Of a stretch of 64,000 nt of DNA, positions 262-63,931 are shown piece after piece. The position numbers were made by a program, and so were the translations under genes. Position 1 is the first letter of the stretch. Each line of letters starts with the position of its first letter. The DNA is taken from the NCBI GenBank assembly GCA_038062955.1, contig JBBTWE010000001.1, positions 101,411-165,410 of the forward strand, written 5' to 3'. The notes under the pieces were generated by a model that was not told where the DNA came from, did no database searches, and saw nothing but the letters and a program-made list of their open reading frames with translations. The DNA comes from Patescibacteria group bacterium (GTDB taxonomy: Bacteria; Patescibacteriota; Minisyncoccia; Phycocordibacterales; BOKC01).

Positions 262-357
262 ATTTTTTTCTTATAATTTAATAAATCAAAAAAGTATTGC
301 TAAATGGCAATACTTTTTTGATTTCATTTCATACTGTTTCGGATAGAACTTTCAGAT

Positions 358-377
358 TCCTGCCTGCCGGCAGGCAG
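358..377. repeat. 20-bp perfect palindrome CCTGCCTGCCGGCAGGCAGG (family R1)
   Basis: Read directly; GC-rich palindrome in AT-rich DNA. Related copies at 4979, 7944 and 61990, all at gene ends. Confidence 0.85.
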
Positions 378-400
378 GTGAGACAAGTTTGTTGGAAAAA

Positions 401-516
401 CCGTGTCAGAAATTTTATATAGCACCTCATTTTTATTTTGCTCACGCAAAACAAAACATGAGGCGTAATTTTTGAAGGGCAAAAATTAACTTCGTGATAA
501 AAAATCTTCTGACATG
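401..516 (-). repeat. 115-bp repeat element (family R2), inverted copy of 6378..6492
   Basis: Reverse complement matches 6378..6492 with about 3 mismatches in 112 nt. Contains internal hairpin CCTCAT...ATGAGG and ATTTTTGCCCTTCAAAAAT core. Confidence 0.85.
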
Positions 517-535
517 ATTTTTGAAGAGCAAAAAT

Positions 536-620
536 CAGAACCGTACCGAAATGTACTCCTTTGTACATTGAGGGAGGCTCGGAGCGAAGTAACGATGAGA
601 TGTGTCGGATATGAGAGTTC
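536..620 (+). repeat. structured repeat / candidate ncRNA family R3, copy C
   Basis: Shares ACCGTACCGA, hairpin, TTGAGGGAGGCTCGGAGCGAAG, AACGA, CGGATATGAGAGTT with copies at 24911, 48941 and 62486. Hairpin stem differs (TGTAC/GTACA versus CGTATT/AATACG) with compensation. Confidence 0.5.
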
Positions 621-623
621 TAC

Positions 624-2912: not shown

Positions 2913-4091
2913 TTAAGGCCAAAATTGTTTAAAAAATATCCTTATTTTTCCAGTGGTTTTTTTTACAAAATACTTTAAATATGGCTCTTGGTCTTGAGCC
3001 CCTAAACCTAATAAGCAAAGTCCATAAACTGCTGACCAAGAAGAATCCTTGATTACATTATTTTTTGTATTTTCATTGGAGATCGTTCCAATTTTTGCCG
3101 GAAGTTTTAAGAATGTTTTGGCAAAATTTTCAATATCAACGATGCCGCTTCCTCCGCCAGTAAAGATAATTCCGGCTGGCAGTATGCCGTTCCTCCCAAT
3201 TTTTTTCAGATGAGATTCTATGGTATCGAATATGTCTTCGAGTCTGGCTTCAATAATTTCTTCAACTTTTTTTCTTGGATAAGTCGCAATGGTTAATGCG
3301 CCAAGTTTTACGTGTTCAGCTTCGTCTAAGGAAATTTTAAGTCCCAAAGCAATATCGTTTGTTATGTTGTTTGAACCAGTAGGGAAGACTTCGACGGAAA
3401 TTGGAATATTGTTTTCGTAAATCACAGTAGAGAGAGTTTCTCCGCCTATATTGATTAGAATACAACCCGCTCTTTTTTGTTGTTTGGAAAGCAAAATCAA
3501 ACTTGAAGCTATCGGATTTGCCACAGCGTCTATGACGTCAACACCTAATTCTTCCAATACTTTCATCAAATCATTCAAATGTTTTTCTAAAACAGTCACG
3601 AAAAGACACTTCATTTCAAGCTTACTCCCTTTCATACCTATAGGACTTCCGATAACAGTTTTGCCATCCAATTTATAAGAGATTGGAATTGTGTGTAAGA
3701 TTTCTCTGTTTAAAGAAGCAGAGCTAGGTATATTGTTTTGGCACTCCGTGATTAATTTTTCTAAATCTATCTCACCCACTTCAAGATCGGCGCGAGATAT
3801 TATGACTTCTGCAGAGGAAGAAACACTGCCTAACCCCGTGCTACCGACAGAGAGCATGACTTCTTTTATTTTTGAGCCTATACTTTTTTCTGCCGCTCGG
3901 AGCGCTTTTCCTACACATTTTGAAACGGCCTCTTTTTCTGTTATGCAACCATGTCGAAGACCTCTGGATTCAGAGAGCCCAAAACCGATCATCTTTGGTA
4001 CAGGACGTTCACCTTCAATCAAGGATTCAGCAACGCCTACTCGAATAAATTGAGTACCAATATCGATGCTAGCAACAAAATTCCTGCTCAT
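2913..4091 (-). CDS. ftsA: cell division protein FtsA (actin-like ATPase)
   Basis: N-terminal IDIGT actin-fold motif, 392 aa, immediately upstream of ftsZ on the same strand. Confidence 0.9.
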   Translation of the reverse strand: MSRNFVASIDIGTQFIRVGVAESLIEGERPVPKMIGFGLSESRGLRHGCITEKEAVSKCVGKALRAAEKSIGSKIKEVMLSVGSTGLGSVSSSAEVIISRADLEVGEIDLEKLITECQNNIPSSASLNREILHTIPISYKLDGKTVIGSPIGMKGSKLEMKCLFVTVLEKHLNDLMKVLEELGVDVIDAVANPIASSLILLSKQQKRAGCILINIGGETLSTVIYENNIPISVEVFPTGSNNITNDIALGLKISLDEAEHVKLGALTIATYPRKKVEEIIEARLEDIFDTIESHLKKIGRNGILPAGIIFTGGGSGIVDIENFAKTFLKLPAKIGTISNENTKNNVIKDSSWSAVYGLCLLGLGAQDQEPYLKYFVKKTTGKIRIFFKQFWP

Positions 4092-4213
4092 AGAGCATAA
4101 ATTATATCATGAAAAAATTGATTCAAGATATAAGATTCACGATTCAAGAAAGAAATTTGAGATTTCCTGTTGTTATTTTTTTTCCTATCGCCTAATGCCT
4201 GGTTTCCCAAAGC

Positions 4214-4890: not shown

Positions 4891-4978
4891 AGGCTAATAG
4901 ACTAACATATATTGTTTAAACGTACAAATTTATTTCAACTTCTAATTAGGGTGTGGAAAAATATAGATTCAAGAAACA

Positions 4979-4997
4979 ATCTGCCTGCCGGCAGGGA
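4979..4997. repeat. R1 palindrome, truncated copy (CTGCCTGCCGGCAGGGA)
   Basis: Direct read; intergenic between hisS-like and rpsU. Confidence 0.6.
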
Positions 4998-5092
4998 TTC
5001 ATGATTTCATGGCTTCGCCAGATCCTGAGCAGCATGGACAAGAATAATTTTTTTTAATCTTGATTCCTGAATCTTGAATCATGCTTCTACTC

Positions 5093-6313: not shown

Positions 6314-6377
6314 ATGTTCTTTTTAAAAACGCGCATATTCGCGAGCTCACGGATGGCTGATTTCTGTACCACAGAAA

Positions 6378-6492
6378 TCATGTCGGAAGATTTTTTATCA
6401 CGAAGTTAATTTTTGCCCTTCAAAAATTACGCCTCATGTTTTGTTTTGTGTGAGCAAAATAAAAATGAGGTGCTATATAAAATTTCTGACTC
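6378..6492 (+). repeat. 115-bp repeat element (family R2), inverted partner of 401..516
   Basis: See 401..516; the ORF-track entry 6413..6697 overlaps it and is judged spurious. Confidence 0.85.
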
Positions 6493-14053: not shown

Positions 14054-14191
14054 CCCGTAGTAGAAAATGACATAACTCTTGTTTGTGAGAAATAATATCT
14101 TAGAAACAAGATTAAATCTGTATTATAATATAAGTGGTATTACAAATTAACCTAAAAATGGCGAGCAAATGATGTCATTTTTCACTACGGG
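14054..14191. repeat. MITE-like element, family R4 (20-bp terminal inverted repeats CCCGTAGTAGAAAATGACAT / ATGTCATTTTTCACTACGGG)
   Basis: Direct read; right end fused to ATG of next gene (CACTACGGG-ATG). Confidence 0.75.
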
Positions 14192-15487
14192 ATGAAAAAT
14201 ATCTCTAAATTTCAAATCGCAGTTCTAGGAATTTTTGGAGTTTTTATTATAGTGGGTATTTTAATTTTTGCGCTCGGAAAGACTGGAGGCGGAGGTTCCG
14301 TGGTCCCTCTTTTGGTTTGGGGAACAATGCCAAACACAGAGTTTTCAGAAGTTATTTCCAAGACTGGTCTAGATAAAAATGAAACCTTAAAAATAGATTA
14401 CGTTCAAAAAAGTAAGGACAATTTTGACATCGAATTCTTGGAGGCTCTGGCAAGCGGGATTGGCCCAGACTTGTTTTTTCTTAGTTCCGATTCTCTTTTA
14501 AAATATAAAGATCGAGTATTTGTTGTGCCATTTAGCAGTTTTTCGGAGGGGGATTTTACAAAATCTTTTATAGAAGGAGCAGAAGTTTTTCTTGTGGACG
14601 AGGGAGTCTCTGGTTTTCCTGTTTTGGTTGATCCTCTCGTGATGTATTGGAATAGAGACATTTTTAATTCAGAAGGTTTGGTCGCGCCGCCTCGTTTTTG
14701 GGATGAGATTTATAATTTAGCCACTAACCTCACTCACAGAGACTCTTCCTCTGAATTAACAAGAAGCGGTGTGGCTTTGGGTGAATACGGAAACGTGAGC
14801 AATGCCTTTGAAATTCTAAGCACTCTCATAATGCAAGCTGGAAACCCGATTACCAAACGAGTTTCAGGAGGAGTGCAAGTTGTGTTAAACCAAAAATTCA
14901 ATTTACCAACTTCACCAGCAGAACAATCTTTAAGTTTCTATACAGGATTTTCTAATTCAGATAAAACTTTTTATTCATGGAACCGATCTTTGCCTCGTTC
15001 AAGAGATTATTTCTTGTCCGGAGATTTGGGTGTTTATTTTGGTTTAGCTTCAGAACTTTTCGAATTGCGGGATAAAAATCCAAATTTGAACTTTGATGTT
15101 GCGATGATTCCACAAACAAAAGAAGTCGGTAAATCCGTTGTTTATGGCAGGGTAGAGGCTATAATGATAAACAAACAATCGCGCAATATCCCTTCAGCCT
15201 TTCTTCTAGCTAGAGCGCTTTCAGGTGATTTCGCAGTTTCGGCTTTAAGTAAAATCAAGTCTTTGCCCGGGACTCGCAGAGATTTGCTTTCCGAGAAGCC
15301 GGAACGGGCTTATATGGAAGTATTTTTTGCGAGCGCAATTATAGCTAAGCCTTGGCTAAGCCCTGATATGTCCGCAACCCGACTCATATTTAAAGATATG
15401 ATAGAATCTGTTACAGGAGGCAGAGCGCGCACAAGCGAAGCAGTGAACCGAGCTTATGTTGAATTAAACTCACTTTTAAGTTTTTAG
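14192..15487 (+). CDS. membrane-anchored extracellular solute-binding protein (ABC SBP family 1-like)
   Basis: N-terminal TM, then LLVWGTMP..., ASGIGPDLFF, VLVDPLVMYWNRDIF pattern typical of sugar-type SBPs; no permease adjacent. Confidence 0.55.
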   Translation: MKNISKFQIAVLGIFGVFIIVGILIFALGKTGGGGSVVPLLVWGTMPNTEFSEVISKTGLDKNETLKIDYVQKSKDNFDIEFLEALASGIGPDLFFLSSDSLLKYKDRVFVVPFSSFSEGDFTKSFIEGAEVFLVDEGVSGFPVLVDPLVMYWNRDIFNSEGLVAPPRFWDEIYNLATNLTHRDSSSELTRSGVALGEYGNVSNAFEILSTLIMQAGNPITKRVSGGVQVVLNQKFNLPTSPAEQSLSFYTGFSNSDKTFYSWNRSLPRSRDYFLSGDLGVYFGLASELFELRDKNPNLNFDVAMIPQTKEVGKSVVYGRVEAIMINKQSRNIPSAFLLARALSGDFAVSALSKIKSLPGTRRDLLSEKPERAYMEVFFASAIIAKPWLSPDMSATRLIFKDMIESVTGGRARTSEAVNRAYVELNSLLSF

Positions 15488-16754: not shown

Positions 16755-17108
16755 ATGAAAAACTTTCTAAAAGCAACCCAATACTTTATTTTTTCCATGC
16801 TGTTTTTCCCTATGCTGGTTGGAGCGCAGTCAGGCGGAATTACCAGTTTACAACGTCTACTTCAAGTTGGAATGAGTTACATTTCTGTTCTTACAAGAAT
16901 AGTTGTGATTTTTGGTATCATATTTTTCTTTTGGGGTATGGCTTTATTTATTCTGCACGCTGAAGAAGAAGATAAAGAAGAAGATAAAAAAAAGATGCTC
17001 TGGAGCATCATTGCGATAACTGTAATGTTTGCTATCTGGGGCATTATAAAATTTTTTCAAATAGCTTTTTTCGGTAGCATATTCCCAGGTGCTCCGTCAG
17101 GCCTTTAA
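16755..17108 (+). CDS. VirB2/TrbC-pilin-like small membrane protein, paralog 4
   Basis: Start trimmed to MKNFLK; core FFWGMALFILHAEEEDKEEDKKKMLWSIIAITVMF. Confidence 0.55.
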   Translation: MKNFLKATQYFIFSMLFFPMLVGAQSGGITSLQRLLQVGMSYISVLTRIVVIFGIIFFFWGMALFILHAEEEDKEEDKKKMLWSIIAITVMFAIWGIIKFFQIAFFGSIFPGAPSGL

Positions 17109-17125
17109 TTAAATAAAAAAATATT

Positions 17126-17446
17126 ATGAATGGTCCTTTACCTGATGTTGGTTATGTATCACTACTTAATTTTGAGGAATTTCTTGGAAATTTAGTTCCA
17201 GTAATTTTTGTTTTGGCCTTTGTCTTTTTTTTGTGGGGATTAGCTAAATTTATCCTTCATTCAGGAGAAGAAGAAGCAAAAGAAGAAGGAAAGAGAATTA
17301 TGTTTTGGGGTATCGTAGGCCTAGTCATTATGTTTGGAATTTGGGGGATAGTATATTTTTTACTTGATGTATTGTTTGGATCCGGCCCCTTCCAAGGTTC
17401 TAATCAAACTATTGAGATTCCTAATTTTCCCACACGAGTACCTTAA
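17126..17446 (+). CDS. VirB2/TrbC-pilin-like small membrane protein, paralog 5 (no signal peptide)
   Basis: Core FFLWGLAKFILHSGEEEAKEEGKRIMFWGIVGLVIMF, but the N-terminus is a short hydrophilic stretch followed directly by helix 1 rather than a signal peptide. Confidence 0.55.
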   Translation: MNGPLPDVGYVSLLNFEEFLGNLVPVIFVLAFVFFLWGLAKFILHSGEEEAKEEGKRIMFWGIVGLVIMFGIWGIVYFLLDVLFGSGPFQGSNQTIEIPNFPTRVP

Positions 17447-17615
17447 AAATTAAAAACCAGTGACTTGTAACAAGTAACTTGTGACTGATTGGTTGGTTTC
17501 TTTATGCACAGGAGAAACATTGATTATTTAACGTTTACGTAGTATCATTTTGATTATTAAATATAAGGTCGCATTATAAGTTTATAAAGCATTATTATTA
17601 AAAAATAACTAAATT

Positions 17616-17978
17616 ATGAGTAAAAGATTTGTATTTTTATCAAGCGCGCTAGCTTTGGTTGCCACATCGCCATTTTTTGCTTCGGCCCAATTAAATTTTG
17701 GAACATTAACAACCACTCTAGACCGTTTCAAGGATGTTCTTGGCACACTAACAACAGTTATCATAGCTTTGGCTTTGATATTCTTTTTCTGGGGTCTTGC
17801 AAAATTTATTCTTGCTGCTGGTGAAGAAGAAGCAAAAGAAGAAGGAAAGAGAATTATGTTTTGGGGTATTCTTGCTTTCGTTATAATGATCGGTATTTGG
17901 GGAATTGTTAATTTCCTTATAGGCGCCTTCGGTATAACAGGTACTACAGCTCCTAATCTCCCTCAAGTTCCAAGATAA
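17616..17978 (+). CDS. VirB2/TrbC-pilin-like small membrane protein, paralog 6
   Basis: Signal peptide ...FFASAQLNFG; core FFFWGLAKFILAAGEEEAKEEGKRIMFWGILAFVIM. A 45-nt stretch is identical to paralog 5 DNA. Confidence 0.55.
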   Translation: MSKRFVFLSSALALVATSPFFASAQLNFGTLTTTLDRFKDVLGTLTTVIIALALIFFFWGLAKFILAAGEEEAKEEGKRIMFWGILAFVIMIGIWGIVNFLIGAFGITGTTAPNLPQVPR

Positions 17979-17999
17979 TATAATTTACGATAAATCTAA

Positions 18000-18260
18000 G
18001 TGTTGCCAATAATCTACAAGATAAACGAGTTTATAGTGAACCCTATTATCTATCTTATGATAGGGGTGTCTGTGGTCGTTTTTCTGTGGGGGATTGTTGA
18101 GTTTATCGCCAAGTTCGATAGTGAAGAAGTTAAAGAACGTGGTAAAAGAAATATGTTTTGGGGTCTTATCGGAATGTTTATAATGTTTGGAGTTTTCGGA
18201 ATCATCAGGCTAATTTTAGGAACATTTGCTATCACTCCGATCGAACTCCTGACCCAATAG
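18000..18260 (+). CDS. VirB2/TrbC-pilin-like small membrane protein, paralog 7 (short, no signal peptide)
   Basis: Core VFLWGIVEFIAKFDSEEVKERGKRNMFWGLIGMFIMF; 86 aa. Confidence 0.5.
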   Translation: MLPIIYKINEFIVNPIIYLMIGVSVVVFLWGIVEFIAKFDSEEVKERGKRNMFWGLIGMFIMFGVFGIIRLILGTFAITPIELLTQ

Positions 18261-18335: not shown

Positions 18336-18401
18336 CCCCGTAGTGAATTTTGGCATAGCAACTTCGTTGCGGGAGCAATAATGTCAAAATCTACTACGGG
18401 G
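18336..18401. repeat. R4 short hairpin element (CCCCGTAGTGAATTTTGGCAT...ATGTCAAAATCTACTACGGGG)
   Basis: Direct read; left boundary of the GC-rich islet. Confidence 0.75.
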
Positions 18402-18439
18402 TAAAAAAAGCGGCAGAGAATTGAATCCTCCGCCGCTCG

Positions 18440-21230: not shown

Positions 21231-21297
21231 CCCCGTAGTAGATTTTGGCATAGCAACCTCGGTTGCGAATAAAATAATGCCAAAATTCACTACGGGG
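21231..21297. repeat. R4 short hairpin element (CCCCGTAGTAGATTTTGGCAT...ATGCCAAAATTCACTACGGGG)
   Basis: Direct read; right boundary of the GC-rich islet. Confidence 0.75.
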
Positions 21298-21423
21298 TCA
21301 ACCTGCGTAATGCATCATGACCTTCGCAACACTCCATCGTAATATTTCAATTTTTATGGATCTTAATAGACCTTGACTCAAATGTATTAAAGCATAGAGT
21401 AATTGAAGAGAAATTTTTAATTT

Positions 21424-24780: not shown

Positions 24781-24910
24781 ATAAATGATTGAAATATTAT
24801 ACCCCAGATTAGTAAATACTACTTGGTAGTTTAGTAACATGGGGGAATTGAAATTAATTTCCTAGCATATACACATTGTGATATTATTTACTCAACTTAA
24901 AAATTTAGAA

Positions 24911-25020
24911 TTTTCAGATTCGGATGCAGATCAAGGCGCAAGCGAGAACCGTACCGAGACGTATTTAATAATACGTTGAGGGAGGCTCGGAGTGAAGCAA
25001 CGCAGAGATGCGCCGAATAT
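24911..25020 (+). repeat. structured repeat / candidate ncRNA family R3, copy A
   Basis: TGCAGATCAAGGCGCAAG...ACCGAGACGTATT-TAAT-AATACGTTGAGGGAGGCTCGGAGTGAAGCAACGCAGAGATGCGCCGAATATGG; GAGA tetraloop hairpin CGCA-GAGA-TGCG. Confidence 0.55.
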
Positions 25021-25831
25021 GGAAGTTCTTTATATACTTATGGAAGATTTAAGCAAAACCCAAATAATACTTTTAGGACTCCTCGTGAGCTTTGTAAGCT
25101 CTGTTGCTATTAGCATAATGACCTATTCGCTCTTAAGTGAAGCGCCCGCAACTATTACTCAAACAATAAATAGAGTGGTAGAGAGGACCATTGAGACAGT
25201 TGTGCCAGCAGAAAATAAGCCAGAAGTTATCACCAAGGAAGTTACTGTTGTTGTTAAAGAAGAAGATTTGGTTATAGACGCTATTAAGAAAAATGAAGGC
25301 AGTCTTGTCAGAATTCAAGAAATCATTAAAGGGGTTCCACCAAAATTTTCAGCCTTTGGTTTGGTTTTACATAAAGGAGGCCTGATTGCCACTTCAAAAA
25401 CTAATTTTCTGCCTAACGCGACATTTGAGGCAGTCTTGCCAGATAATTCAAAAGTAACTTTGAAAAAAATGTTTGCTCCCACTAAAAACTTTTCATTTTT
25501 TACCGTTGAGAATTCTGCCCAAAAAGAATTTGTAGGCGCATCGATGGGGGATTCTGATACTTTACAGCTTGGACAGACAGTTATTTCTATACGAGGGGTT
25601 GAACGCAACACTGTATCAATTGGCAGAATAAACGGACTCTTGCTGACTCCAGAAAATAGTGAAAATGCCACATCTTCCAGATATTCTCTTATTGAGAGTG
25701 ATGTCTTAAATGGGGAAGTTGGCAGTCCGGCTCTAAACCTAAACGGAGAACTCATTGGAATGAGTTCCGGCCAGCTCGGAAATTTTATTCCGATAAATCT
25801 TCTGAAATTAGAAATGCAAAATCTAATCTAG
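25019..25831 (+). CDS. membrane-anchored trypsin-like (S1C/HtrA-like) domain protein with substituted catalytic triad (likely pseudo-protease)
   Basis: [17 protein letters not shown] and [28 protein letters not shown] are colinear with HtrA ADSDALRVGD... and [26 protein letters not shown], but the GNSGG Ser box reads GEVGS and the His/Asp positions are also substituted. Confidence 0.5.
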   Translation: [270 protein letters not shown]

Positions 25832-25887
25832 GCACTATAAGCTTGCTTTTTTCATAGAAATCGTTTATAATACTGCTCTCTGAAATT

Positions 25888-25957
25888 GTTGATTTTTGCC
25901 CTTCAAAAATCACGTCGTAAGATTTTCTACAATGTAATTGTGGAAAATTTACGACGC
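25888..25957 (+). repeat. R2-related element (ATTTTTGCCCTTCAAAAATCACG plus 45-nt hairpin CGTCGTAAGATTTTCTACAA...TTGTGGAAAATTTACGACG)
   Basis: Shares core with 401..516 / 6378..6492; near-identical copy at 41083..41147 with compensatory loop change. Confidence 0.7.
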
Positions 25958-25991
25958 GGGTGTCGCTAAATATAAAAGTTCGAACACTTCA

Positions 25992-40050: not shown

Positions 40051-41043
40051 ATGGCATCTCAATTTTATAACAATTCAGTTTTTTGGATAGAAGTTGATAA
40101 GATCAAACCAAATCCTCATCAGCCACGAAAAGAGTTTGATGAAGGACAGCTTCGAGGTCTCGCGGACTCTATAAGGCAATATGGCGTGCTTCAGGCACTT
40201 GTCGTTACTCGCCAAGAAATTCCAAAAGAGGATGGTGGTCTTGCTGTTGAATATGAATTAGTTGCAGGAGAGAGAAGACTCCGAGCCTCAAAACTCGCAG
40301 GGCTTTCCCAAGTGCCGGTTTTAATTCGAGTTGTTGAAGATTCGGATTTGATGAAACTCGAGCTTGCGATTATCGAAAATATTCAAAGGGAAGACTTAAA
40401 TTCAGTCGACCGCGCTCGGGCATTTGCTCGTCTCGCAGAAGAATTCAAATTCAAACATCACCAGATTGCTGACAAGGTGGGAAAGAGTAGGGAATACGTT
40501 TCTAACAGTCTTCGAATTTTGTCCCTGCCAGAAGCGATTCTACAAGCCTTAAGCGAAGGAAAAATCACAGAAGGTCATACTAGACCTCTTCTCATGCTAA
40601 TCGATAGGCCGGCGGAACAAGACACATTGTTTAAAGAAATCGTGGCGAGACAACTTACAGTGCGTGAAGCTGAAGCAATTTCTCGTCGTATTGCTTTTGA
40701 TAAGATTCGCAAAAAAGATATAGATCCTTTGACTCAAGCGATTGAACAAGAGTTAAGTAGTACTTTAGGAACCAGAGTCCACATTGAGAGAGGGGAGAAT
40801 GGCGGCAAAATTTCCATTGATTTCTTTTCTGAAGATGAGCTTGATGGAATTTTAAATGTGATTCAGAAAGAAAAAAGCGAGAAAGTTAAAAGTTTAGAAC
40901 AAGCTAGAGACGCGCAGAAAGCAGAGCTTTCCGATGCGCCAGTGATTCTTACTTCCGAAACAGCTCTATTAGACGATCGCTCAAAAGAAGAGAAAGAGGA
41001 GAGTGATGAGGAGTTGTATTCTATAAAAAACTTTTCCATATAG
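40051..41043 (+). CDS. parB: chromosome partitioning protein ParB/Spo0J
   Basis: ParB box GERRLRAS, HTH region, 330 aa with acidic C-terminus. Confidence 0.9.
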   Translation: MASQFYNNSVFWIEVDKIKPNPHQPRKEFDEGQLRGLADSIRQYGVLQALVVTRQEIPKEDGGLAVEYELVAGERRLRASKLAGLSQVPVLIRVVEDSDLMKLELAIIENIQREDLNSVDRARAFARLAEEFKFKHHQIADKVGKSREYVSNSLRILSLPEAILQALSEGKITEGHTRPLLMLIDRPAEQDTLFKEIVARQLTVREAEAISRRIAFDKIRKKDIDPLTQAIEQELSSTLGTRVHIERGENGGKISIDFFSEDELDGILNVIQKEKSEKVKSLEQARDAQKAELSDAPVILTSETALLDDRSKEEKEESDEELYSIKNFSI

Positions 41044-41082
41044 AACTTCCAAATTCAGCGCATCCCATCGTTGCTCGCGCCT

Positions 41083-41147
41083 GATTTTTGCCATTCAAAA
41101 ATCATGTCGTAAGATTTTCTACAACATAGTTGTGGAAAATTTACGAC
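41083..41147 (+). repeat. R2-related element (copy of 25888..25957)
   Basis: GATTTTTGCCATTCAAAAATCATGTCGTAAGATTTTCTACAACATAGTTGTGGAAAATTTACGAC. Confidence 0.7.
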
Positions 41148-41394
41148 TGATCTGCATCCAAATTTGAAAGTTCTAATAAAAAAAGAGCCTTGTGAAATGA
41201 ATCTCACAAAAGGCTCTGTTACTCTATCTCTTTGGGTTCATTGAGTACGGTTAGAACCCCGAAGATAACCGCCAAAAAGACCAATAAGGTCATCCTTGTC
41301 ATGTTGTTGTCGTTAGCCGACACTATGGCGGAAGCGCCGCACAAAATGCATAGACCAAAGGAAATATTGGCCGAGAGATTGGATGGCACAGATC

Positions 41395-45991: not shown

Positions 45992-46969
45992 TATAATTTT
46001 TGTCAATAGGAAATTTGCACACTTATCCCTTGACAACAAAACAGCCATTTGCTAAGATGGATGTATGGCAAAAGAAACCAAATATTCAATAAGAGATTTA
46101 AAGAGGGATTTCCCTACAGACGAAGCCTGTTTAGCCTTGATATTTGATACCCTACATAGCCGTAAATGCTCATGTGGAGGCGAATACAAGCAAGTTAAAG
46201 GCCGTAAGCAGTTCTACTGCTCTAATTGCCGTTATCAAATAGCCCCTACTGCAAATACAATCTTCAATAAGTCAGATACTCCACTATCTTTGTGGTTTCA
46301 TGCAATCTTTATATTCTCAAACGCTAAGAGCGGTATTTCCGCAAAAGAAATGGAAAGACAGCTCGGTGTTACCTACAAGTGTGCTTGGAGGATTCTTTCT
46401 ATGATTAGAAAGTCCTTAAAGCAAGACAACACCAAACTTAAAGGCGAAGTCGAGATAGATACTGGTTTCTTTGGGGGTAAAGGATATGGTGGAGAAAACA
46501 ACGAACGATTAAGTCATGTCATGACGAAGAAATCTATTGTTAACGTAGCCGTAGAAAGAGGTGGAAAGATTAAGGCAGAAATCATACCCGTAGCTTCTGC
46601 TCAAATCATGGAATCTTTTATCAAAAGAAACATTGAATCAAAAGCTACAAAGATATTCACTGATACCAGTGCTGTGTATGTGAGGAGCGATATAGTTTAC
46701 AAACGAGAATCTGTAAATCACTCTAAGAAAGAATACGTTAGAGGCAAAGCCCACGTTAATACTGTGGAGACATTTTTCTCGCATTTAAAGCGAAGTATAA
46801 AAGGTACATTCAAAGCTATTTCGAAACAGCATTTACAGTCTTACTTGGATGCTTTTGTCTTTCATTACAACAACCGAGGCAACGACAATCAGCGTTTCGG
46901 GGTTTTATTGAATACTTTATTGCGTGCTTAAGGATGGAGAGGAATTTGGATTTAGTCATAATTTTGTAT
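45992..46969 (+). mobile_element. IS1595-family insertion sequence (boundaries approximate; possible 8-bp direct repeat ATAATTTT)
   Basis: Single transposase ORF with its own TTGACA-17-TAAGAT promoter. ATAATTTT occurs just outside both ends. Terminal inverted repeats not confidently resolved. Confidence 0.55.
46065..46931 (+). CDS. IS1595-family (ISXO2-like) transposase
   Basis: N-terminal transposase zinc-ribbon (C..C...C..C), DDE_Tnp_IS1595-like core; 288 aa. Confidence 0.8.
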   Translation: MAKETKYSIRDLKRDFPTDEACLALIFDTLHSRKCSCGGEYKQVKGRKQFYCSNCRYQIAPTANTIFNKSDTPLSLWFHAIFIFSNAKSGISAKEMERQLGVTYKCAWRILSMIRKSLKQDNTKLKGEVEIDTGFFGGKGYGGENNERLSHVMTKKSIVNVAVERGGKIKAEIIPVASAQIMESFIKRNIESKATKIFTDTSAVYVRSDIVYKRESVNHSKKEYVRGKAHVNTVETFFSHLKRSIKGTFKAISKQHLQSYLDAFVFHYNNRGNDNQRFGVLLNTLLRA

Positions 46970-47528: not shown

Positions 47529-48302
47529 TAGTTTGACTAAAAAATTGATTTTTATCCACAGTTTTGCTAGGATAGCGAGCTAATAAGTTGTAGAATTAAA
47601 TAAAGCAAAACATCCCCTTTTCGGGAATGCTTTGCCAAGTCAACTTCTAGGAAGACTTTGAAACCGCTACTTTAACGAGGGCGGTTTTCAATTGGCCTCG
47701 TCTGTCTTCATTGGCTGGAAATACGATCCAACTACCATTATGGTGTTGGCAAACCATATTTCCATCACGACCAAGAAAACAGAATGCGAATCTTGAACTC
47801 ATTTTGTTTGTCGTTTACTCCGATCCGCTGTTACAGACCAACGGCGTGGAATGATTTTACATCGACCATCAAATCACTCAAAAAATATACATGGAGATAC
47901 TTATTGAGAGATATAAATGACAAACAAAAAAGCCCCAATGACCGAGGCTTGTAGGTTGCAATAGTTACCCATTGCTACCCTGCACTCGCAGGGCTTTTGA
48001 CCCCGCAAGCACCCGTCATTAGAGCTTTTACTTTTTTAGTGTACCGCATAGCACTTTCAAAGTCAAAAATCCCTATAACAAAATCCTCGGTCGCTTTTCA
48101 TTAAAACTTAGTCTCCGAAAAGCTAAAGACCTATAAATAATAACAAGTACAAAATTCGTGTCAACTACTTTTTCCCCAAGTTTGTTGTGAAGGGAGATAT
48201 GTGGAAATTTGATGAAATAAATAATAAGCCTATATATAAGGCTTTTTAAGCTTTTTATTTGAGAGAAGTTGCTTTACTTTTTGATTATATCCACAGTCAC
48301 CT

Positions 48303-48920
48303 TTAGTGTCTTCCTTGAAGAGCATTTTTGATTGTTTCTGGATCAGAGTATTCAAGTTCTGTTCCAAGTGACAGTCCCTTACCTAAAGATGAAATATTAA
48401 ATTTATATTTTTCACTTAAGGCAGATAATTCTCTCTTCACAATTATTGTTGTATTTTCTCCTTCTGGGTTAAAATCCATAGCGATAATAATTTCTTTTAA
48501 TTCTCCAGCTTGACCAGCCTTATCAACCTTTTCCAGAAGTTTGTTCATCCTTAATTTTTTGAATGGCGGTTTATCAAGAATCGGTATGGTGCCACCCAAG
48601 ACAAAATATTTACCACTAAAAATTCCAGATTTTTCAATATTTTCGAGATCAATTTCTCGGCTTACAATCATTAGGGTATTTTCGCGTTTAGTATCTCGGC
48701 AAATTTTGCATAATTTCTCTTCTTTCTGTTGCCCGAAAAAAAATCGAAAACAATTTCCGCAAGTGCTGGCGGTTTTTTTTAGATTAGACATTTGTCTGGC
48801 CAAATCTTCAACGAATCCTTGATCTTGAGACAACAAAAAAAAGACAAATCTTTTTGCTTGTCTTTGACCGATTCCTGGGAAACGGGAGAATAGTTCTGCT
48901 AATTTATTAGTATGTTCCAT
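48303..48920 (-). CDS. recR: recombination protein RecR
   Basis: HhH N-terminus FPGIGQRQAKRF, C4 zinc finger CGNC...CKIC, Toprim; 205 aa. Confidence 0.9.
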   Translation of the reverse strand: MEHTNKLAELFSRFPGIGQRQAKRFVFFLLSQDQGFVEDLARQMSNLKKTASTCGNCFRFFFGQQKEEKLCKICRDTKRENTLMIVSREIDLENIEKSGIFSGKYFVLGGTIPILDKPPFKKLRMNKLLEKVDKAGQAGELKEIIIAMDFNPEGENTTIIVKRELSALSEKYKFNISSLGKGLSLGTELEYSDPETIKNALQGRH

Positions 48921-48940
48921 AAATAGATTCTTTTATTACT

Positions 48941-49045
48941 AGAAATTTTGGTTGCAGATCAAGGCGCAAGTGAGGAGCGAACCGAGGCGTATTAGACAAT
49001 ACGACGAGGGAGCACCGGAGCGAAGCAACGCAGAGATGCGCCAAA
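48941..49045 (+). repeat. structured repeat / candidate ncRNA family R3, copy B
   Basis: TGCAGATCAAGGCGCAAGTGAGGAGCGAACCGAGGCGTATT-AGAC-AATACGACGAGGGAGCACCGGAGCGAAGCAACGCAGAGATGCGCC; about 85% identical to copy A with loop-only changes in hairpin 1. Confidence 0.55.
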
Positions 49046-49059
49046 AGGACTAGTAATAA

Positions 49060-50433
49060 TTAGAATTCTTCGAATTCTTTCTCTGATCCGCCAAAATTTC
49101 CTTTAGCAATAGTTTGGAAGGTCGCTTTTTTATCGTTGAAGAAAAGATCAACTTTGCCGGTCTCACCATTACGATGTTTCTCGATTAGAATTTCTGCGAT
49201 ATTTGTCCGATCAGAATCTTCTTTATATTTATCTTCACGATGAATAAACATAACGACGTCTGCGTCTTGTTCTATTGAGCCCGAATCACGAAGATCAGAA
49301 AGTCTTGGGCGTCCTCCACGGCTTTCGACAGCTCTTGAAAGTTGGGATAGCGCCAAAACAGGAACATCCAGCTCGCGTGCTAAATTTTTAAGTGAACGGG
49401 AAATTTCCGTTACTTGCTGAACGAGATTTTCATTGTGTCGACTTCCTGTGGGAAGCATCAGTTGTAGATAATCAACGATGATAAGTTTTAAATCTTTTTC
49501 GGCTTTAAGCCTTCTCGCTGTCGCTCTCATCTTGATAATATTATTTCCCGGTTGGTCGTCTATGTAAATCGGGGCAGTTGAGAGTTTATCAAGAGATTGC
49601 CTAATCGAAGTAAAATCTTCTTCTCGGGATAATTTTCCAGTTCGGAGTTTCCACGCGTCAACATTGGCTTGAGCGGCAAGCATTCTATCAACCAACTGTT
49701 GAGAACTCATTTCCAGAGAGAATATGCCGACTGAATTATTGTGCATGACCGCTGTTTGTCTAGCGATATCGAGAGCCAGAGAAGTTTTTCCCATCGATGG
49801 TCGTGCCGCCAGAATAATCAAATCTGATTTTTGAAGTCCCGCCAATTTGTGATCAATGTCAGGAAAACCTGTGGCGATACCTCTCATTTCACCTTTGGAG
49901 TTGTGCAACTTATCTAATCTTTCCCACGCTTCCTCCAATTCATCTTTTATTTCTGTAAATTTAAATGTGCCTCCGCTTGATGTGACATCAAAAATTTTCT
50001 TTTCTGCTCTGTCTAAAATTTCTTCCAAATCGCTCTCTTCCTCATAGCCTAGATTTGCGATATGTTCAGACGCTTCAATAAGGCGTCTCATGACGTGTTT
50101 TGTTTTAACAATTTCGCCGTAGTGACGGACGTTTACAGCTGTCGGGACGCTATTTAAAAGTTCGGCAAGAAAGCTCGATCCTCCTATTTCATCCAAACTG
50201 TTTTTTTCTTTGAGACGAGCAGACACAGAAAGCAAATCAATCGGGTTATTTTTCTTGAATAAATCTTGGACTGCATCGTAAATCAACTTATGTTTTTTTG
50301 AGTAAAAGGAATTTCCATTAATTATGTCCACAATTTCATATATTGCTTCGGCACGAAGCATCAAAGAACCGAGGAGCGCCATTTCAGCTTCCAGGTTTTG
50401 TGGTGGAATTTTTAATCGAGTGTTTGTTGCCAT
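49060..50433 (-). CDS. dnaB: replicative DNA helicase DnaB
   Basis: N-terminal DnaB domain (NLEAEMALLGS), Walker A ARPSMGKTSLAL; 457 aa. Confidence 0.95.
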   Translation of the reverse strand: MATNTRLKIPPQNLEAEMALLGSLMLRAEAIYEIVDIINGNSFYSKKHKLIYDAVQDLFKKNNPIDLLSVSARLKEKNSLDEIGGSSFLAELLNSVPTAVNVRHYGEIVKTKHVMRRLIEASEHIANLGYEEESDLEEILDRAEKKIFDVTSSGGTFKFTEIKDELEEAWERLDKLHNSKGEMRGIATGFPDIDHKLAGLQKSDLIILAARPSMGKTSLALDIARQTAVMHNNSVGIFSLEMSSQQLVDRMLAAQANVDAWKLRTGKLSREEDFTSIRQSLDKLSTAPIYIDDQPGNNIIKMRATARRLKAEKDLKLIIVDYLQLMLPTGSRHNENLVQQVTEISRSLKNLARELDVPVLALSQLSRAVESRGGRPRLSDLRDSGSIEQDADVVMFIHREDKYKEDSDRTNIAEILIEKHRNGETGKVDLFFNDKKATFQTIAKGNFGGSEKEFEEF

Positions 50434-51404: not shown

Positions 51405-52784
51405 CTACATTGATGAGATTGACGAAGGTCCGTCATTATCATTTACATTGAAACCTTCTTTTTTAATTAAATCTCGAAGTTCGTCTGCTTTTTTAAAATC
51501 TTTTTCTTTGCGAGCATTTTCTCTCTGTGTCATCAGATCTTTAATATTTTGTGGAATTTCAAGCAGGGGAGATTTATAGTTTTTAAGATTTAAGCCAAAA
51601 ACTTTATCAAATTCTAAAATTGTCGCTTTTCTCACGTCTTTACCTAGGGAGTCATCTTTCATGACTTCCCACAATAGAGCTAAAGCTTTTGGGGTGTCTA
51701 AATCATTCCCGATAATGGTTTTAAACTCCGAAACATATTTTGCATTCGGCTTCTTTTCATTCAGAATTTCTTCAGCAACAAAATGTCTTATTTTAGAAAG
51801 AGCCGTTTCCGAAGCTTCGAGGGCGTCCCAGGAAAATATTTGAGGTGATCGGTAGTGAGCTTGAAGAAAAAGTAATCGCAAAGATATTGGATCAAGATTC
51901 TTTTCCTCCAATTCTTTTAGTGTAATAGAATTGCCGGCAGACTTAGCCATTTTTCCACTCTGAAGAATTAAATGTTCGTTATGCATCCAGAAATGAGCCA
52001 TCGGCTTTTCTGTGGCGGATTCACTTTGAGCTATTTCATTTGTGTGATGTATGGGCTTATGTTCAATTCCTCCTGTATGAATATCAAAAGTCTCGCCTAG
52101 ATATTTCTTTGACATAACCGAACATTCTACATGCCAACCAGGGAAGCCAGATCCCCAAGGACTCATCCAACCAATTTTTTCATCACTTGCGAATTTCCAA
52201 AGAGCGAAATCGCGATCTTCTTTCTTTTCTGGGTTTTTTCCAATTCTGGATTCTCTATTTTCTTCTGGGTTACCAAATTTTATGTAATTTTTAATTTTTG
52301 ACGTATCAAAATATATTCCATCACTTGTCTTGTAAGTCAGATTTTTTTCTTCTAATTTTTTTATAAGTTCAATACTTTCTTTTATATGATCACTTGCGAA
52401 AGGTAAATGAGTTGGCTTAAGACAGTTCAGTTTATTTCTATCTTCAACATAAATTGCCGCATATTTTTGCGCTAACGTTTTCATGGCTTCCAAAGTAAAA
52501 GGCAGATTCTCCCGTCTAAGTCCTTTGGCCATTTTGTCTTCACCTTCGTCTTGGTCGGAAGTGAGGTGACCAAAATCAGTGAGATTTATAACTTGGTTTG
52601 TTTCGTATCCACTTAATTCAAAAAATCTTCGCAACAGATCCCAAATGACAGCTGAACGAAGATTGCCTAGATGTTGTCTGTCATAAACTGTCGGTCCACA
52701 GTGATACATGGAAACTTCACCTGTTTTTATCGGTTTAAATTTTTCTTTTTTATTCTTAAGAGAATTGAAAAGAGTGATAGTCAT
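51405..52784 (-). CDS. cysS: cysteinyl-tRNA synthetase
   Basis: HIGH region [18 protein letters not shown] variant KMAKSAGN, zinc ligands; 459 aa. Confidence 0.95.
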
Positions 52785-54356: not shown

Positions 54357-54506
54357 CCCGTAGTAGAATTTCAGGTTGCAAATTTTGGGTAGATAGAATA
54401 TGTTGATAAAAACTGAATAATTTATAAAATTAATAAAAATATTCAGGATAGTCCCGTAGTAGAAGCGAAGCTTTCACTACGGGACGACCTGAAATTTCAC
54501 TACGGG
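54357..54506. repeat. MITE-like element family R4 (TIRs CCCGTAGTAGAATTTCAGGT / ACCTGAAATTTCACTACGGG) with inner mini-hairpin CCCGTAGTAGAAGCGAAGCTTTCACTACGGG
   Basis: Direct read; right end fused to rplI start codon (CACTACGGG-ATG), as at 14191/14192. Confidence 0.75.
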
Positions 54507-54956
54507 ATGGAAGTTATATTCTTAAAAGATGTTCCAAAATTAGGAAAGAAAGATCAAGTCAAAAAGGTGCCAGATGGATACGCTTTAAATTTTTTGATAC
54601 CCAAAGGTTTGGTGAAAAAATCTTCAGCAAGCGAAATAACAAAGATTACAGAACAGAAAAAGAATAAAGAGGCTAATAATGAGAAGCAAGTTAAGGAATT
54701 TAAGGAAAAACTTGAAATAATAAAAAATACCCCAGTTAAGATTGCAGAAAACGCAAACGAAAAAGGCCATTTATTTAAAGCTGTAAGTAAAGAAGAATTG
54801 ATTGCGGCTATAAAAAAATACACCGCGCTCGATTTAGAGCCAGAGTGTATCTTTTTGAAAAAGCCTATAAAAGAAACTGGTGAGCATCAAGTCGGAGTGG
54901 AAAAATTCGGACTTAAGGCCAATCTGAAAGTTATTATAGAAGCCAGAAAGGTTTAA
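54507..54956 (+). CDS. rplI: 50S ribosomal protein L9
   Basis: [33 protein letters not shown]-terminal domain; 149 aa. Confidence 0.9.
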
Positions 54957-62425: not shown

Positions 62426-62485
62426 ATTACTCTCATTTTAAACTTTTTTTTTAAAATTAAAAATACATCTTATATACAATTTTAG

Positions 62486-62610
62486 AACTTTCAGATTCGA
62501 GGCTAGTTCTAGGCGATCCGCGAGCGTTCTGACCAAGCTGTATATACTGATATAGTGCATGGAAGAAGCGGAGCGGTCAACGACGAAATAGACCGAATAT
62601 GAGAGTTATA
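62486..62610 (+). repeat. R3-related element, copy D (diverged)
   Basis: Begins GAACTTTCAGATTCG like copy A and the 340 region; ends GGAGCGGTC-AACGACGAAATA-GACCGAATATGAGAGTT, paralleling copies A and C. Confidence 0.35.
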
Positions 62611-63931
62611 AGGACGGAAGGAAGGCCATAGGGTCCAAATACGCCCTCTGATCGGCTAATGGCATATATGCCCCGTTGCAAGGCGTAGCCGAAGTGTATC
62701 TTTGAGGACGTAATCCTTCGGTAATATAGGCACCAAAATGCAGATGGGGGCCAGTGGAATACCCCGCGCCAAACATTCCAGGAGCTCCACCGCTAAAAGC
62801 GATTGTGGCTCCCCTTTCCACTTGTTGGCCGACGACTGATACCTGTGAAGCCGACAAATGCGAATATAGAGTGGATAAACCATTGTTATGCGCGATTAAA
62901 ATCCACCTACCAAAGGAATAACAACCCCGGACTTCGTCAGTATTTCCGAGCGCGCTAACGACTCCAGAATCAGCCGCCTTGACCCTTGTGCCGACCGCTG
63001 CGCGGAAATCGACTCCGTTGTGAGTGCCAGAAACATAAAGTCTGATAGAGTCTGCGGTGCGTCCGAAGAATTGACTAACTGATATATTATCGAGCGGCCA
63101 CGCAAGCACTCCAGAGCGCGCAGACGGGATTTTTGACGGATCAATGAAAATTTGGAGTCGGGATTCAAATTCGAATATTTCTCGTTCAACTTCAGCTTTA
63201 CGCGCCAAATTTCTAGCTAGAATTTTTTTATATTCGGACTCCGTATTTCTCGTTTCTTTTAAAAGTTGTTCTTTTTGTTTTTTATTTGCTTCGACTATTT
63301 TATGTTGTGAATTGTATTCAGCTTCAAGCCTTTCTAATTCATTCTTTTCTTCCTCCGTTTCTGTTTTTTGATCCTCGAGAACTTCTTTGGTGACTTTTAA
63401 GTCATTAACCTTTTGTTGAACACTTGTTTGGAAACGACTTAGCGTGTCCACTTCTTCCCAAGCAGATCCAAAATCGTCATATTTTAGAAAAATCTCAACC
63501 ATCGAATTTTCCGATGTTTCATTGATAAGTCTCAAAGTTTCCCCTAAACTTTCACTGTTTTTTTCTATTCGCTTTTCATTTTCTCCAATTTGAATATCCA
63601 ACTTTGAAAGGTTAAGGGTGGTCGATTCAACTTCGTTTTCTGTAACTTTGATATCTTTTAAAAGTTTGTTGCGAGTTAGATCGAGGGATTTAACAGCTCC
63701 TTGGAGAGTGTTAGCTGATTTGGAAACCTCAATAAGATCAGTTTGGTATTTATTTATCTCTTTATTTAATTCTGCTACCGCTTTATTTTTTTCCTCGATC
63801 TTTTTTTGAAGCTCAATTATTTCTGAATTGTTTTGCGCTAGTACTTCCCCTCCCGCAAGCAAAAATATCATGCCTAAGGTGGCAATTGTTCCGAATGCTA
63901 ATTTTCTAGAATTTCTTTTGCTTTTTTCCAT
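62606..63931 (-). CDS. M23 family metallopeptidase with N-terminal coiled-coil (EnvC-like)
   Basis: Signal peptide, long coiled coil, C-terminal M23 motifs GTHNGVDF...HLHF; 441 aa. Confidence 0.8.
   Translation of the reverse strand: MEKSKRNSRKLAFGTIATLGMIFLLAGGEVLAQNNSEIIELQKKIEEKNKAVAELNKEINKYQTDLIEVSKSANTLQGAVKSLDLTRNKLLKDIKVTENEVESTTLNLSKLDIQIGENEKRIEKNSESLGETLRLINETSENSMVEIFLKYDDFGSAWEEVDTLSRFQTSVQQKVNDLKVTKEVLEDQKTETEEEKNELERLEAEYNSQHKIVEANKKQKEQLLKETRNTESEYKKILARNLARKAEVEREIFEFESRLQIFIDPSKIPSARSGVLAWPLDNISVSQFFGRTADSIRLYVSGTHNGVDFRAAVGTRVKAADSGVVSALGNTDEVRGCYSFGRWILIAHNNGLSTLYSHLSASQVSVVGQQVERGATIAFSGGAPGMFGAGYSTGPHLHFGAYITEGLRPQRYTSATPCNGAYMPLADQRAYLDPMAFLPSL

Follow-up and report, generated by a model that had tools for sequence, protein, structure and literature searches.

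What is the structured sequence, here named R3, that recurs along a 64-kb stretch of a Patescibacteria (candidate phyla radiation [CPR]) genome assembled from Hainich groundwater? A preliminary description of this stretch, which we call the window, had proposed a candidate small RNA or an RNA-level repeat. That R3 is a structured repeat was borne out, but "small RNA gene" proved too narrow, and a mobile, mosaic repeat that resembles a MITE (miniature inverted-repeat transposable element) fits better. We consider it likely that R3 is a family of nonautonomous, MITE-like palindromic repeats of Patescibacteria, about 127 nucleotides (nt) in length, of the kind represented by the enterobacterial repetitive intergenic consensus/intergenic repeat unit (ERIC/IRU) and by the Correia repeat.

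We asked whether the copies were real and where they began and ended. The four stretches listed earlier share long blocks far beyond chance: a degenerate pattern of the blocks has 0 matches expected by chance (shuffled window), and an independent direct-repeat search recovers the copies (families D4, D9, and D17). The blocks given as shared by all four are common in part, but copy B is without CGAATATGRGAG and copy D is without GAGGGAGG and GGAGCGAAG. A covariance model, R1, was built from 36 R3 copies (alignment A3), all from Patescibacteria, and scanning the window with it gave exactly five matches. Three copies are canonical, at 127 to 130 nt each including a 17-bp closing stem (P1): copy A (24905-25031, plus strand; 130 bits, E 2.5e-31), copy B (48933-49059, plus strand; 123.6 bits), and the diverged copy D (62482-62611, plus strand; 90.1 bits, E 6e-21). 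Copies C (335-623, plus strand; R1 match at 498-623, 50.4 bits) and G (41040-41176, minus strand; 38.6 bits, E 1.6e-7) are mosaics. Only the inner ~100 nt had been seen before, and the closing stem had been missed; what had been taken as copy C, 536-620, is actually a 289-nt mosaic, and the statement that all copies share the plus orientation does not survive copy G.

To describe the fold, we extended an RNAalifold rod prediction by hand and counted pairs on 36 aligned sequences. We found that 84.8% of cells in the consensus pairs form standard pairs, compared with 31 to 38% when the partners were slid. Changes on both sides were observed in 31 of 45 pairs and in 207 cells, compared with 61 cells in shuffles, and 0 of 500 shuffles reached any of these measures, so that the earlier claim of a structure kept by compensatory changes holds and is considerably strengthened. 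The fold is a roughly 55-bp interrupted rod. Outermost is the 17-bp P1, followed by one bulged base and by a second helix, whose terminal pairs are a G·A and either an A·G or a U-A. Next inward come a conserved asymmetric internal loop (5' WAGGY, 3' YAACGNN) and a short helix, which in most copies contains tandem G·A/A·G but in copy D and in the Magasanikbacteria copy (L064) has Watson-Crick pairs. Innermost are a GA/GGA loop, a third helix, and a variable apical hairpin. The conserved loop blocks are purine rich: the 5' side carries WAGGYG...GYGAG, and the 3' side carries CGGAGYG..YAACGNNGARAU. The apical hairpin covaries (pairs 57-63/71-77), as had been noticed from its paired changes: CGTATT/AATACG in copies A and B, TGTAC/GTACA in copy C. 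However, the second hairpin of the preliminary description, CGCA-GAGA-TGCG with a "GNRA" loop, is not conserved: the share paired was 66%, a value that did not exceed that of shuffles. Its UGCG half instead forms a long-range pairing with a 5' UGCA, in which two positions carry 13 and 7 double changes.

One strand is clearly preferred. Read in the orientation of the alignment, the stems include 111 G·U/U·G pairs and 25 A·C/C·A pairs, the noncanonical positions are purine-purine, and the sense strand folds 7 to 14 kcal/mol better than its complement. Copy A, for example, has a folding energy of -45.3 kcal/mol (z -5.0) on the plus strand and -31.5 on the minus strand, and copy B reaches -42.4 kcal/mol (z -4.6). 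The G·U excess and the better sense fold show that selection acts on only one of the two strands, whether as RNA or as single-stranded DNA, in agreement with the selection on a single-stranded fold that had been suggested. Between copy A and a near-identical copy (L130), almost the only differences are two compensatory swaps in P1. The P1 of copy B (TTATTACTAG.../...CTAGTAATAA) is wholly different in sequence with pairing kept, and the interior helices of copy D are Watson-Crick throughout. The termini, TAGRACTT.../...AAGTYCTA, vary with covariation and are less conserved than the interior. It is through compensatory changes and G·U pairs that the R3 rod fold is maintained on one defined strand. 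The alignment is large and diverse, and it shows that the interior fold, not the termini alone, is under selection.

Has R3 moved? One contig (L125) is syntenic with the window at 51.4 to 54.5 kb, with 78 to 82% nucleotide identity. Its cysS gene contains a 126-nt R3 copy (L125:3078-3203), in frame and in sense orientation, and the resulting open reading frame (ORF) has 506 amino acids (aa), compared with 459 aa in the window ortholog (51405-52784), which is without the copy. Two other copies (L133:2246-2371 and L138:9395-9520) also lie in frame and in sense orientation, deep inside long ORFs. Such copies add about 42 hydrophilic residues to the host protein. Upstream of dnaK, one contig (L183) has a copy 10 nt before the start codon, and the orthologous site in another (L132) is empty: the empty site reads AACTC/TATAAAAAT-ATG, and the filled site reads AACTC/TTAGAATC...GATTCTAA/TATAAACAAT-ATG. 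Other orthologous pairs retain their copies, with flanks 72 to 86% identical. Mosaic copies with internal insertions occur in the window (C and G) and outside it (L131, 184 nt), and their nested modules point to repeated insertion or recombination. The filled and empty orthologous sites, in-frame insertions, and nested mosaics demonstrate that R3 is, or was, mobile. R3 has the properties by which a MITE is recognized, being small, noncoding, and multicopy, with paired termini and presence/absence polymorphism.

We then asked how far the family extends. The pattern CGGAGYGN{2,3}YAACGNNGARAT, scanned on reference genome contigs, was too loose and gave chance matches in GC-rich genomes; among the reference-genome matches listed, the only true R3 copies were one from Minisyncoccia (L019) and the one from Magasanikbacteria. 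A tighter pattern applied to metagenome contigs gave about 37 further true copies, and in all about 55 copies come from outside the window, on Patescibacteria/groundwater contigs. A scan with R1, the kind of check that the preliminary description had named, returned 68 matches at 45 loci, on both strands, with up to 4 copies per 12 kb. The density is about one copy per 3 to 13 kb, and length is nearly constant, at 123 to 130 nt in 35 copies. There is also a low-GC subfamily with the ends and length of canonical R3. On one contig (L147), two of its members and one canonical copy lie in the same orientation 0.8 to 0.9 kb apart (3201-3327, 4021-4147, and 4929-5054), a cassette-like spacing. The plasmid and phage collections that we searched held no R3-like sequences; two pattern matches on viral contigs were dismissed as chance. 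We found no paper in the literature describing such repeats in CPR bacteria. In our reading, R3 is a MITE-like element of the ERIC/Correia type newly recognized in Patescibacteria.

The position of R3 relative to genes is polar. The flanking genes are unrelated and include those for a DUF4446 protein, a trypsin-like peptidase, a thioredoxin-reductase-like protein, and an M23 peptidase, as well as dnaB/recR, parB, clpB, dnaK, and cysS; a common regulon of these housekeeping genes is therefore excluded. R3 is antisense to both neighbors in 26 of 60 copies and sense to both in 15. In 26 of the 60, including copies B, C, D, and G, a convergent gene has its stop codon between -6 and +2 nt from the folding strand's 3' end, and this codon is usually what the element's terminal CTA/TTA spells on the opposite strand. 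No copy (0/60) had the reverse arrangement, with a co-oriented stop codon at its 5' end; there, the minimum distance was 7 nt. Since the termini are palindromic, TA insertion in a stop codon alone cannot explain this polarity, which implies orientation-dependent selection or an asymmetric mechanism. Where the downstream gene is codirectional, its ATG appears to lie 2 to 10 nt past the element, as with copy A; these ATGs were read from the sequence, as the ORF caller takes the most upstream start. No conserved motif was found upstream of R3. A promoter-like site, TTAAAA-18-TACAAT, ends 2 nt before copy D. Orientation relative to the replication strand, judged by GC skew, was 32:19, which is not significant and is confounded by gene strand.

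These observations could be joined as follows. Copies would enter sites containing TA at the borders of genes, with an occasional in-frame insertion inside one, and would be transcribed with, or antisense to, their neighbors. The RNA hairpin might then alter the processing or decay of flanking mRNAs, as it does for ERIC and Correia, and selection on orientation at stop codons would yield the polarity. ERIC RNA alters mRNA processing or decay in an orientation-dependent manner that involves RNase E (PMC2229807), and for Correia elements the effect involves RNase III (PMC10969869). By analogy, the hairpin of an R3 transcript probably modulates mRNA processing.

To what extent does R3 resemble ERIC itself? 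Like R3, ERIC is an imperfect palindrome of about 127 nt with TA at both ends, and its fold is likewise a rod, with a closing stem that is long and internal loops that are rich in purines. In the 127-nt Escherichia coli ERIC, one strand is about 10 kcal/mol more stable than the other, as in the strand asymmetry of R3. The ERIC core blocks, TGCAG..AAGGCG(A)CAAGCGAG ... GAGCGAA(C)GCA(G)ACGCAG..ATGCA, are paralleled in order and strand by those of copies A and B, TGCAGATCAAGGCGCAAGCGAG ... GAGYGAAGCAACGCAGAGATGCG. Copy B and E. coli ERIC align over about 105 nt, with TGCAG, AAGGCG, and CAAGCGAG in common on the 5' side and GAGCGAA, GCA, ACGCAG, and ATGC on the 3' side. Local alignment scores between R3 and ERIC were 38 to 42, compared with 26.4±3.6 in palindrome-preserving shuffles (z 3.2 to 4.5), and were reached by 0 to 10 of 1,000 such shuffles; with the reverse complement, the score was 19 to 20, below the null. 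R1, built from CPR copies only, detected all three of the E. coli ERIC loci tested, always on the strand that aligns with R3, at 16.7 to 20.2 bits. Both families have longer variants through internal insertions, and both lie at gene ends with the equivalent end adjoining a convergent stop codon. In E. coli, the 3' end of one ERIC is 1 nt away from the stop codon of ybhI, convergent as in R3, and at pgk-ERIC-fbaA the gaps are 61 nt on the 5' side and 26 nt on the 3' side. Yersinia ERICs, in the 2005 work of De Gregorio et al., are reportedly also at gene ends, with a preferred orientation beside stop codons, which would agree with the polarity of R3. There are differences. ERIC hosts are Enterobacterales and Vibrionales, whereas R3 is hosted by Patescibacteria; the closing-stem sequences are unrelated; and in-frame intragenic copies appear to be more prominent in R3, at least in our small sample. 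We regard kinship with ERIC as probable.

One Rfam family touches this comparison. RF02818, V_AS5 ("Vibrio RNA AS5"), is classed there as an antisense RNA gene but amounts to an ERIC-type repeat. The model matched an E. coli ERIC (L185:259-382, in the ybhI-ybhJ spacer) end to end, at 46.9 bits with a gathering score of 96, on the strand equivalent to the folding strand of R3. In Vibrio cholerae, AS5 is a 133-nt, Northern-positive, multicopy antisense RNA (PMC2665243). R3 itself falls short of the curated threshold of this model and is formally not an ERIC. At gathering scores, Rfam gave no R3 match anywhere in the window, so that the Rfam check named in the preliminary description yielded no family for R3. 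Signal recognition particle (SRP) RNA, 6S RNA, and Y RNA, as well as hairpin, twister, and hammerhead ribozymes, the T-box, and the K-turn, were considered by eye and rejected, with no model match or motif fit.

Correia elements (CREE/nemis) are, like R3, TA-flanked palindromic MITEs, with lengths of about 106 to 156 bp. They and R3 have in common, in the same order and on the same strand, the blocks CAAGGCG ... GTAC-loop-GTAC ... GGCAACGC. Our Correia query sequence matched Neisseria gonorrhoeae at 99%. In 150 kb of N. gonorrhoeae, the only R1 matches at E<1e-3 were two short Correia elements; such copies scored 25.8 to 32.6 bits (E 1e-5 to 8e-4), in a setting where generic palindromes reach 26 bits with filters off. 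The strands differed (31.6 versus 15.4 bits), the opposite strand scoring 6 to 15 bits overall. The Neisseria background for these scans consisted of two N. gonorrhoeae "plasmid" records in PLSDB (L188-L190, NZ_CP119140.1), which at 2.17 Mb are evidently whole chromosomes. Unlike R3, Correia has a conserved 26-bp terminal repeat (TATAGTGGATTAA...), and the R3 termini differ from it; Correia is also without the P2/P3 segment of R3, and its promoters and site for integration host factor (IHF) have no demonstrated counterpart in R3, where promoter scans were at chance level. We regard kinship of R3 with Correia as possible. R3 is formally a member of neither the ERIC nor the Correia family.

Several observations weigh against placing R3 with these repeats. 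Around copy A, Rfam gave no match at E up to 10, and V_AS5 gave none at E up to 1 on a contig with two R3 copies (L135). A sequence-only profile (nhmmer) found nothing significant against ERIC, Correia, or a palindromic repeat of Cupriavidus described below. Correia and R3 are only marginally similar in pairwise alignment (z 2.4, about 3%). Run without filters, a rod-shaped model gives unrelated Neisseria palindromes 15 to 26 bits, and the ~15 to 20 bits of ERIC fall inside this background; the E values of the R3 model thus overstate kinship. A second model, R2, built from 60 copies, did not raise the ERIC or Correia scores. The R3 ends read TA...TA and are also part of the palindrome, and the filled/empty pairs are too diverged or are without an extra duplication. 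No R3 transposase was identified, in the absence of a wider search; the only transposase in the window is of the IS1595 family (ISXO2-like DDE; 46065-46931), and this gene was rejected as a mobilizer of R3 because its flanks carried no R3-like ends on inspection. Promoter and terminator consensus scans of R3 gave promoter-like sites at chance level and no terminator. Finally, in the commonest arrangement, the strand transcribed with the neighboring genes is the weaker-folding antisense. The selected strand would therefore need transcription of its own, as with AS5, or would act as single-stranded DNA.

The fold might thus matter as single-stranded DNA, with the hairpin serving as a substrate for transposition or recombination and the RNA as a by-product, on the model of IS200/IS605 ends, REP/RAYT, and integron attC bottom strands. 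This would be compatible with an ERIC-like mobile element and would change the target of selection. The fold is strand specific, with conserved extrahelical and unpaired bases, and the folding strand is usually the nontranscribed one relative to the adjoining gene, like the attC bottom strand. No clear target duplication is seen at the one clean filled/empty pair (dnaK), the closely spaced trio on L147 is in a single orientation, and terminal repeats bound by a transposase would not usually be less conserved than the interior, as they are in R3. However, no HUH/Y1 transposase or integrase was found beside R3 copies, in a scan limited to some of the window genes, and the copies are dispersed between housekeeping genes instead of forming cassette arrays. 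Orientation is not significantly tied to GC skew or replication strand (32:19), DNA gains less stability from G·T and sheared G·A pairs, and the equivalent strand of the Vibrio ERIC accumulates as RNA. We regard selection on the DNA form as unlikely.

Alternatively, each copy could be an independently transcribed small RNA gene of ~125 nt, often antisense to the 3' end of a neighbor and regulating in trans or in cis as an antisense RNA. In-frame copies in coding sequences and mosaics fit a mobile element better than a gene family, the overlap with the antisense gene is the stop codon only, there is no conserved upstream motif, and promoter-like sites occur at chance level with no terminator. 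In favor of this reading are a constant length of 123 to 130 nt, covariation and a G·U bias that mark one strand, an AT-rich gap that is always upstream of the 5' end with none at the 3' end, the promoter-like TTAAAA-18-TACAAT 2 nt before copy D, and the precedent of AS5, an ERIC-type repeat that is Northern positive as a 133-nt RNA. On balance, we think a family of small RNA genes quite improbable. That R3 is a cis-regulatory leader or riboswitch of the downstream gene is highly improbable. Copy A and several metagenomic copies do end 2 to 10 nt before a codirectional ATG, but the flanking genes are functionally unrelated, 26 of 60 copies are antisense to both neighbors, and no Rfam match was found; these contexts already largely refute a leader. 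The MITE-like repeat of the ERIC/Correia kind is the reading that we favor.

The individual copies illustrate these features. In copy A, the P1 arms lie at 24907-24923 and 25013-25029, with the bulged A at 24924; the 5' core TCAAGGCGCAAGCGAG is at 24931-24946, the apical hairpin is at 24960-24975, and the 3' core CGGAGTGAAGCAACGCAGAGAT is at 24988-25009, all on the plus strand. Its 3' end is 8 nt ahead of the ATG (25040) of the trypsin-like peptidase gene (Trypsin_2); the preliminary description had placed one copy in the 5' region of a pseudo-protease gene. The ends of three copies at minus-strand stop codons, which it had also described, were confirmed. Flanked by dnaB (stop at 49060) and recR (start at 48920), copy B is antisense to both. 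Copy D overlaps the stop codon of an M23 peptidase gene (62606..63931, minus strand; assigned by Pfam), and copy C adjoins the stop codon (624) of the thioredoxin-reductase-like gene (Pyr_redox_2), also on the minus strand.

Copy C consists of a 5' arm, TAGAACTTTCAGATTCC (335-351, plus strand), an inserted part (352-535), and the canonical 3' two-thirds (536-623, plus strand). The inserted part holds a small GC hairpin, a match to the 5' part of the low-GC subfamily, and hairpin modules of the TGATTTTTGAAG.GCAAAAATCA type. The stretch 333-625 folds with both ends paired, at -95.7 kcal/mol (z -6.4). Copy G keeps P1, P1b, and the 3' core (GCGAGCAACGATGGGATGCGC), and its middle is replaced by two hairpin modules; its folding energy is -52.5 kcal/mol on the minus strand versus -44.1 on the plus strand, and it overlaps the parB stop codon (41043). 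A further sequence, 25868-25985 (minus strand), just upstream of clpB, has an R3-type 5' arm (TTCGAACTTTTATATTTAG) and G-type hairpin modules but is without the R3 3' half, and R1 did not detect it. It is a probable, though uncertain, truncated sixth relative.

The hairpin modules make up a second repeat family in their own right, TGATTTTTGCCCTTCAAAAATCA and CGTCGTAAGATTTTCTACAA..TTGTGGAAAATTTACGACG, with occurrences at 6357-6442, 25888-25984, 41080-41150, and, in reverse orientation, 455-535. They were found within copies C and G and also away from complete R3 copies; thus, this genome carries mosaic, nested small repeats. The window has other repeats as well. A motif of ~30 to 40 nt, ..AATAATGYCAAAATYCACTACGGGGT.., occurs four times, always on the plus strand (14167-14196, 18376-18405, 21272-21301, and 54482-54511; families D8 and D11). 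Four paralogous repeats of 80 to 190 nt (GAAGAAG..AAAGAAGAAGG...ATGTTTTGGGG...; families D2/D3/D7) lie at 16965-18202 in a run of small plus-strand ORFs and resemble small membrane-protein genes duplicated in tandem. About 770 nt (47530-48300), between small ORFs and recR, are without an ORF of at least 60 aa and contain GC-rich hairpins; this segment had no Rfam match at E up to 0.1.

R3 is abundant in the streamlined genomes of Patescibacteria, where it supplies stop codons to neighboring genes, sits directly upstream of start codons, and adds 42-residue segments to essential proteins such as CysS. It will confuse gene calling and noncoding RNA searches in CPR genomes. The kind of element is itself known, and it is the cross-phylum resemblance of the interior, together with the clean covariation, that is worth following up.

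Two other known systems bear comparison. Rickettsia palindromic elements (RPE), likened here by description and not by sequence, are also palindromic repeats of roughly 100 to 150 nt in small genomes and are also inserted in frame in protein genes, where they are tolerated as an extra peptide; the majority of R3 copies, however, are located between genes. The attC sites of integrons match R3 in being imperfect palindromes of about its size, in folding on one particular strand, and in having unpaired bases and an apex that varies; they too follow stop codons immediately, and the strand that folds is the one opposite the coding strand. However, the R3 copies of the window are dispersed among housekeeping genes 8 to 24 kb apart and not in cassette arrays, and the R3 ends (TAGRAC.../...GTYCTA) do not fit the attC RYYYAAC / GTTRRRY. 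No integrase was seen near R3 in a scan of window genes, in which no search was aimed at integrases.

A repeat from Burkholderiales widens the comparison. On the megaplasmid of Cupriavidus metallidurans CH34 (L187, NC_007974.2), a 116-nt palindromic repeat (1609808-1609923) shares about 85% identity in its core with the Correia core of Neisseria (GCAGACAGTACAAGTAGTACGGCAAGG). It occurs at five places on the replicon, with a similar match in Ralstonia, and R1 scores it at 27.8 bits. ERIC and Correia have been known for more than 30 years, are used in strain typing, and affect mRNA decay and promoter activity. To our knowledge, where they come from, how they move, and why their sequences are conserved are unexplained, and we know of no transposase ever found for either. 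Reviews treat the two as unrelated, lineage-specific families (PMC3184786, PMC10969869). It is conceivable, though doubtful, that R3, ERIC, Correia, and the Burkholderiales repeat form one ancient, bacteria-wide class of structured mobile elements in which the conserved, strand-specific internal loops, and not the terminal repeats, are functional, the module being an RNA or single-stranded DNA motif for a universal host factor by which the element is mobilized or processed. If this were true, host-factor recognition of the shared core would explain the absence of an ERIC or Correia transposase. The likeness of R3 to ERIC and Correia in size, rod fold, strand asymmetry, polarity, and sequence blocks suggests either a much older and wider superfamily or strong convergence.

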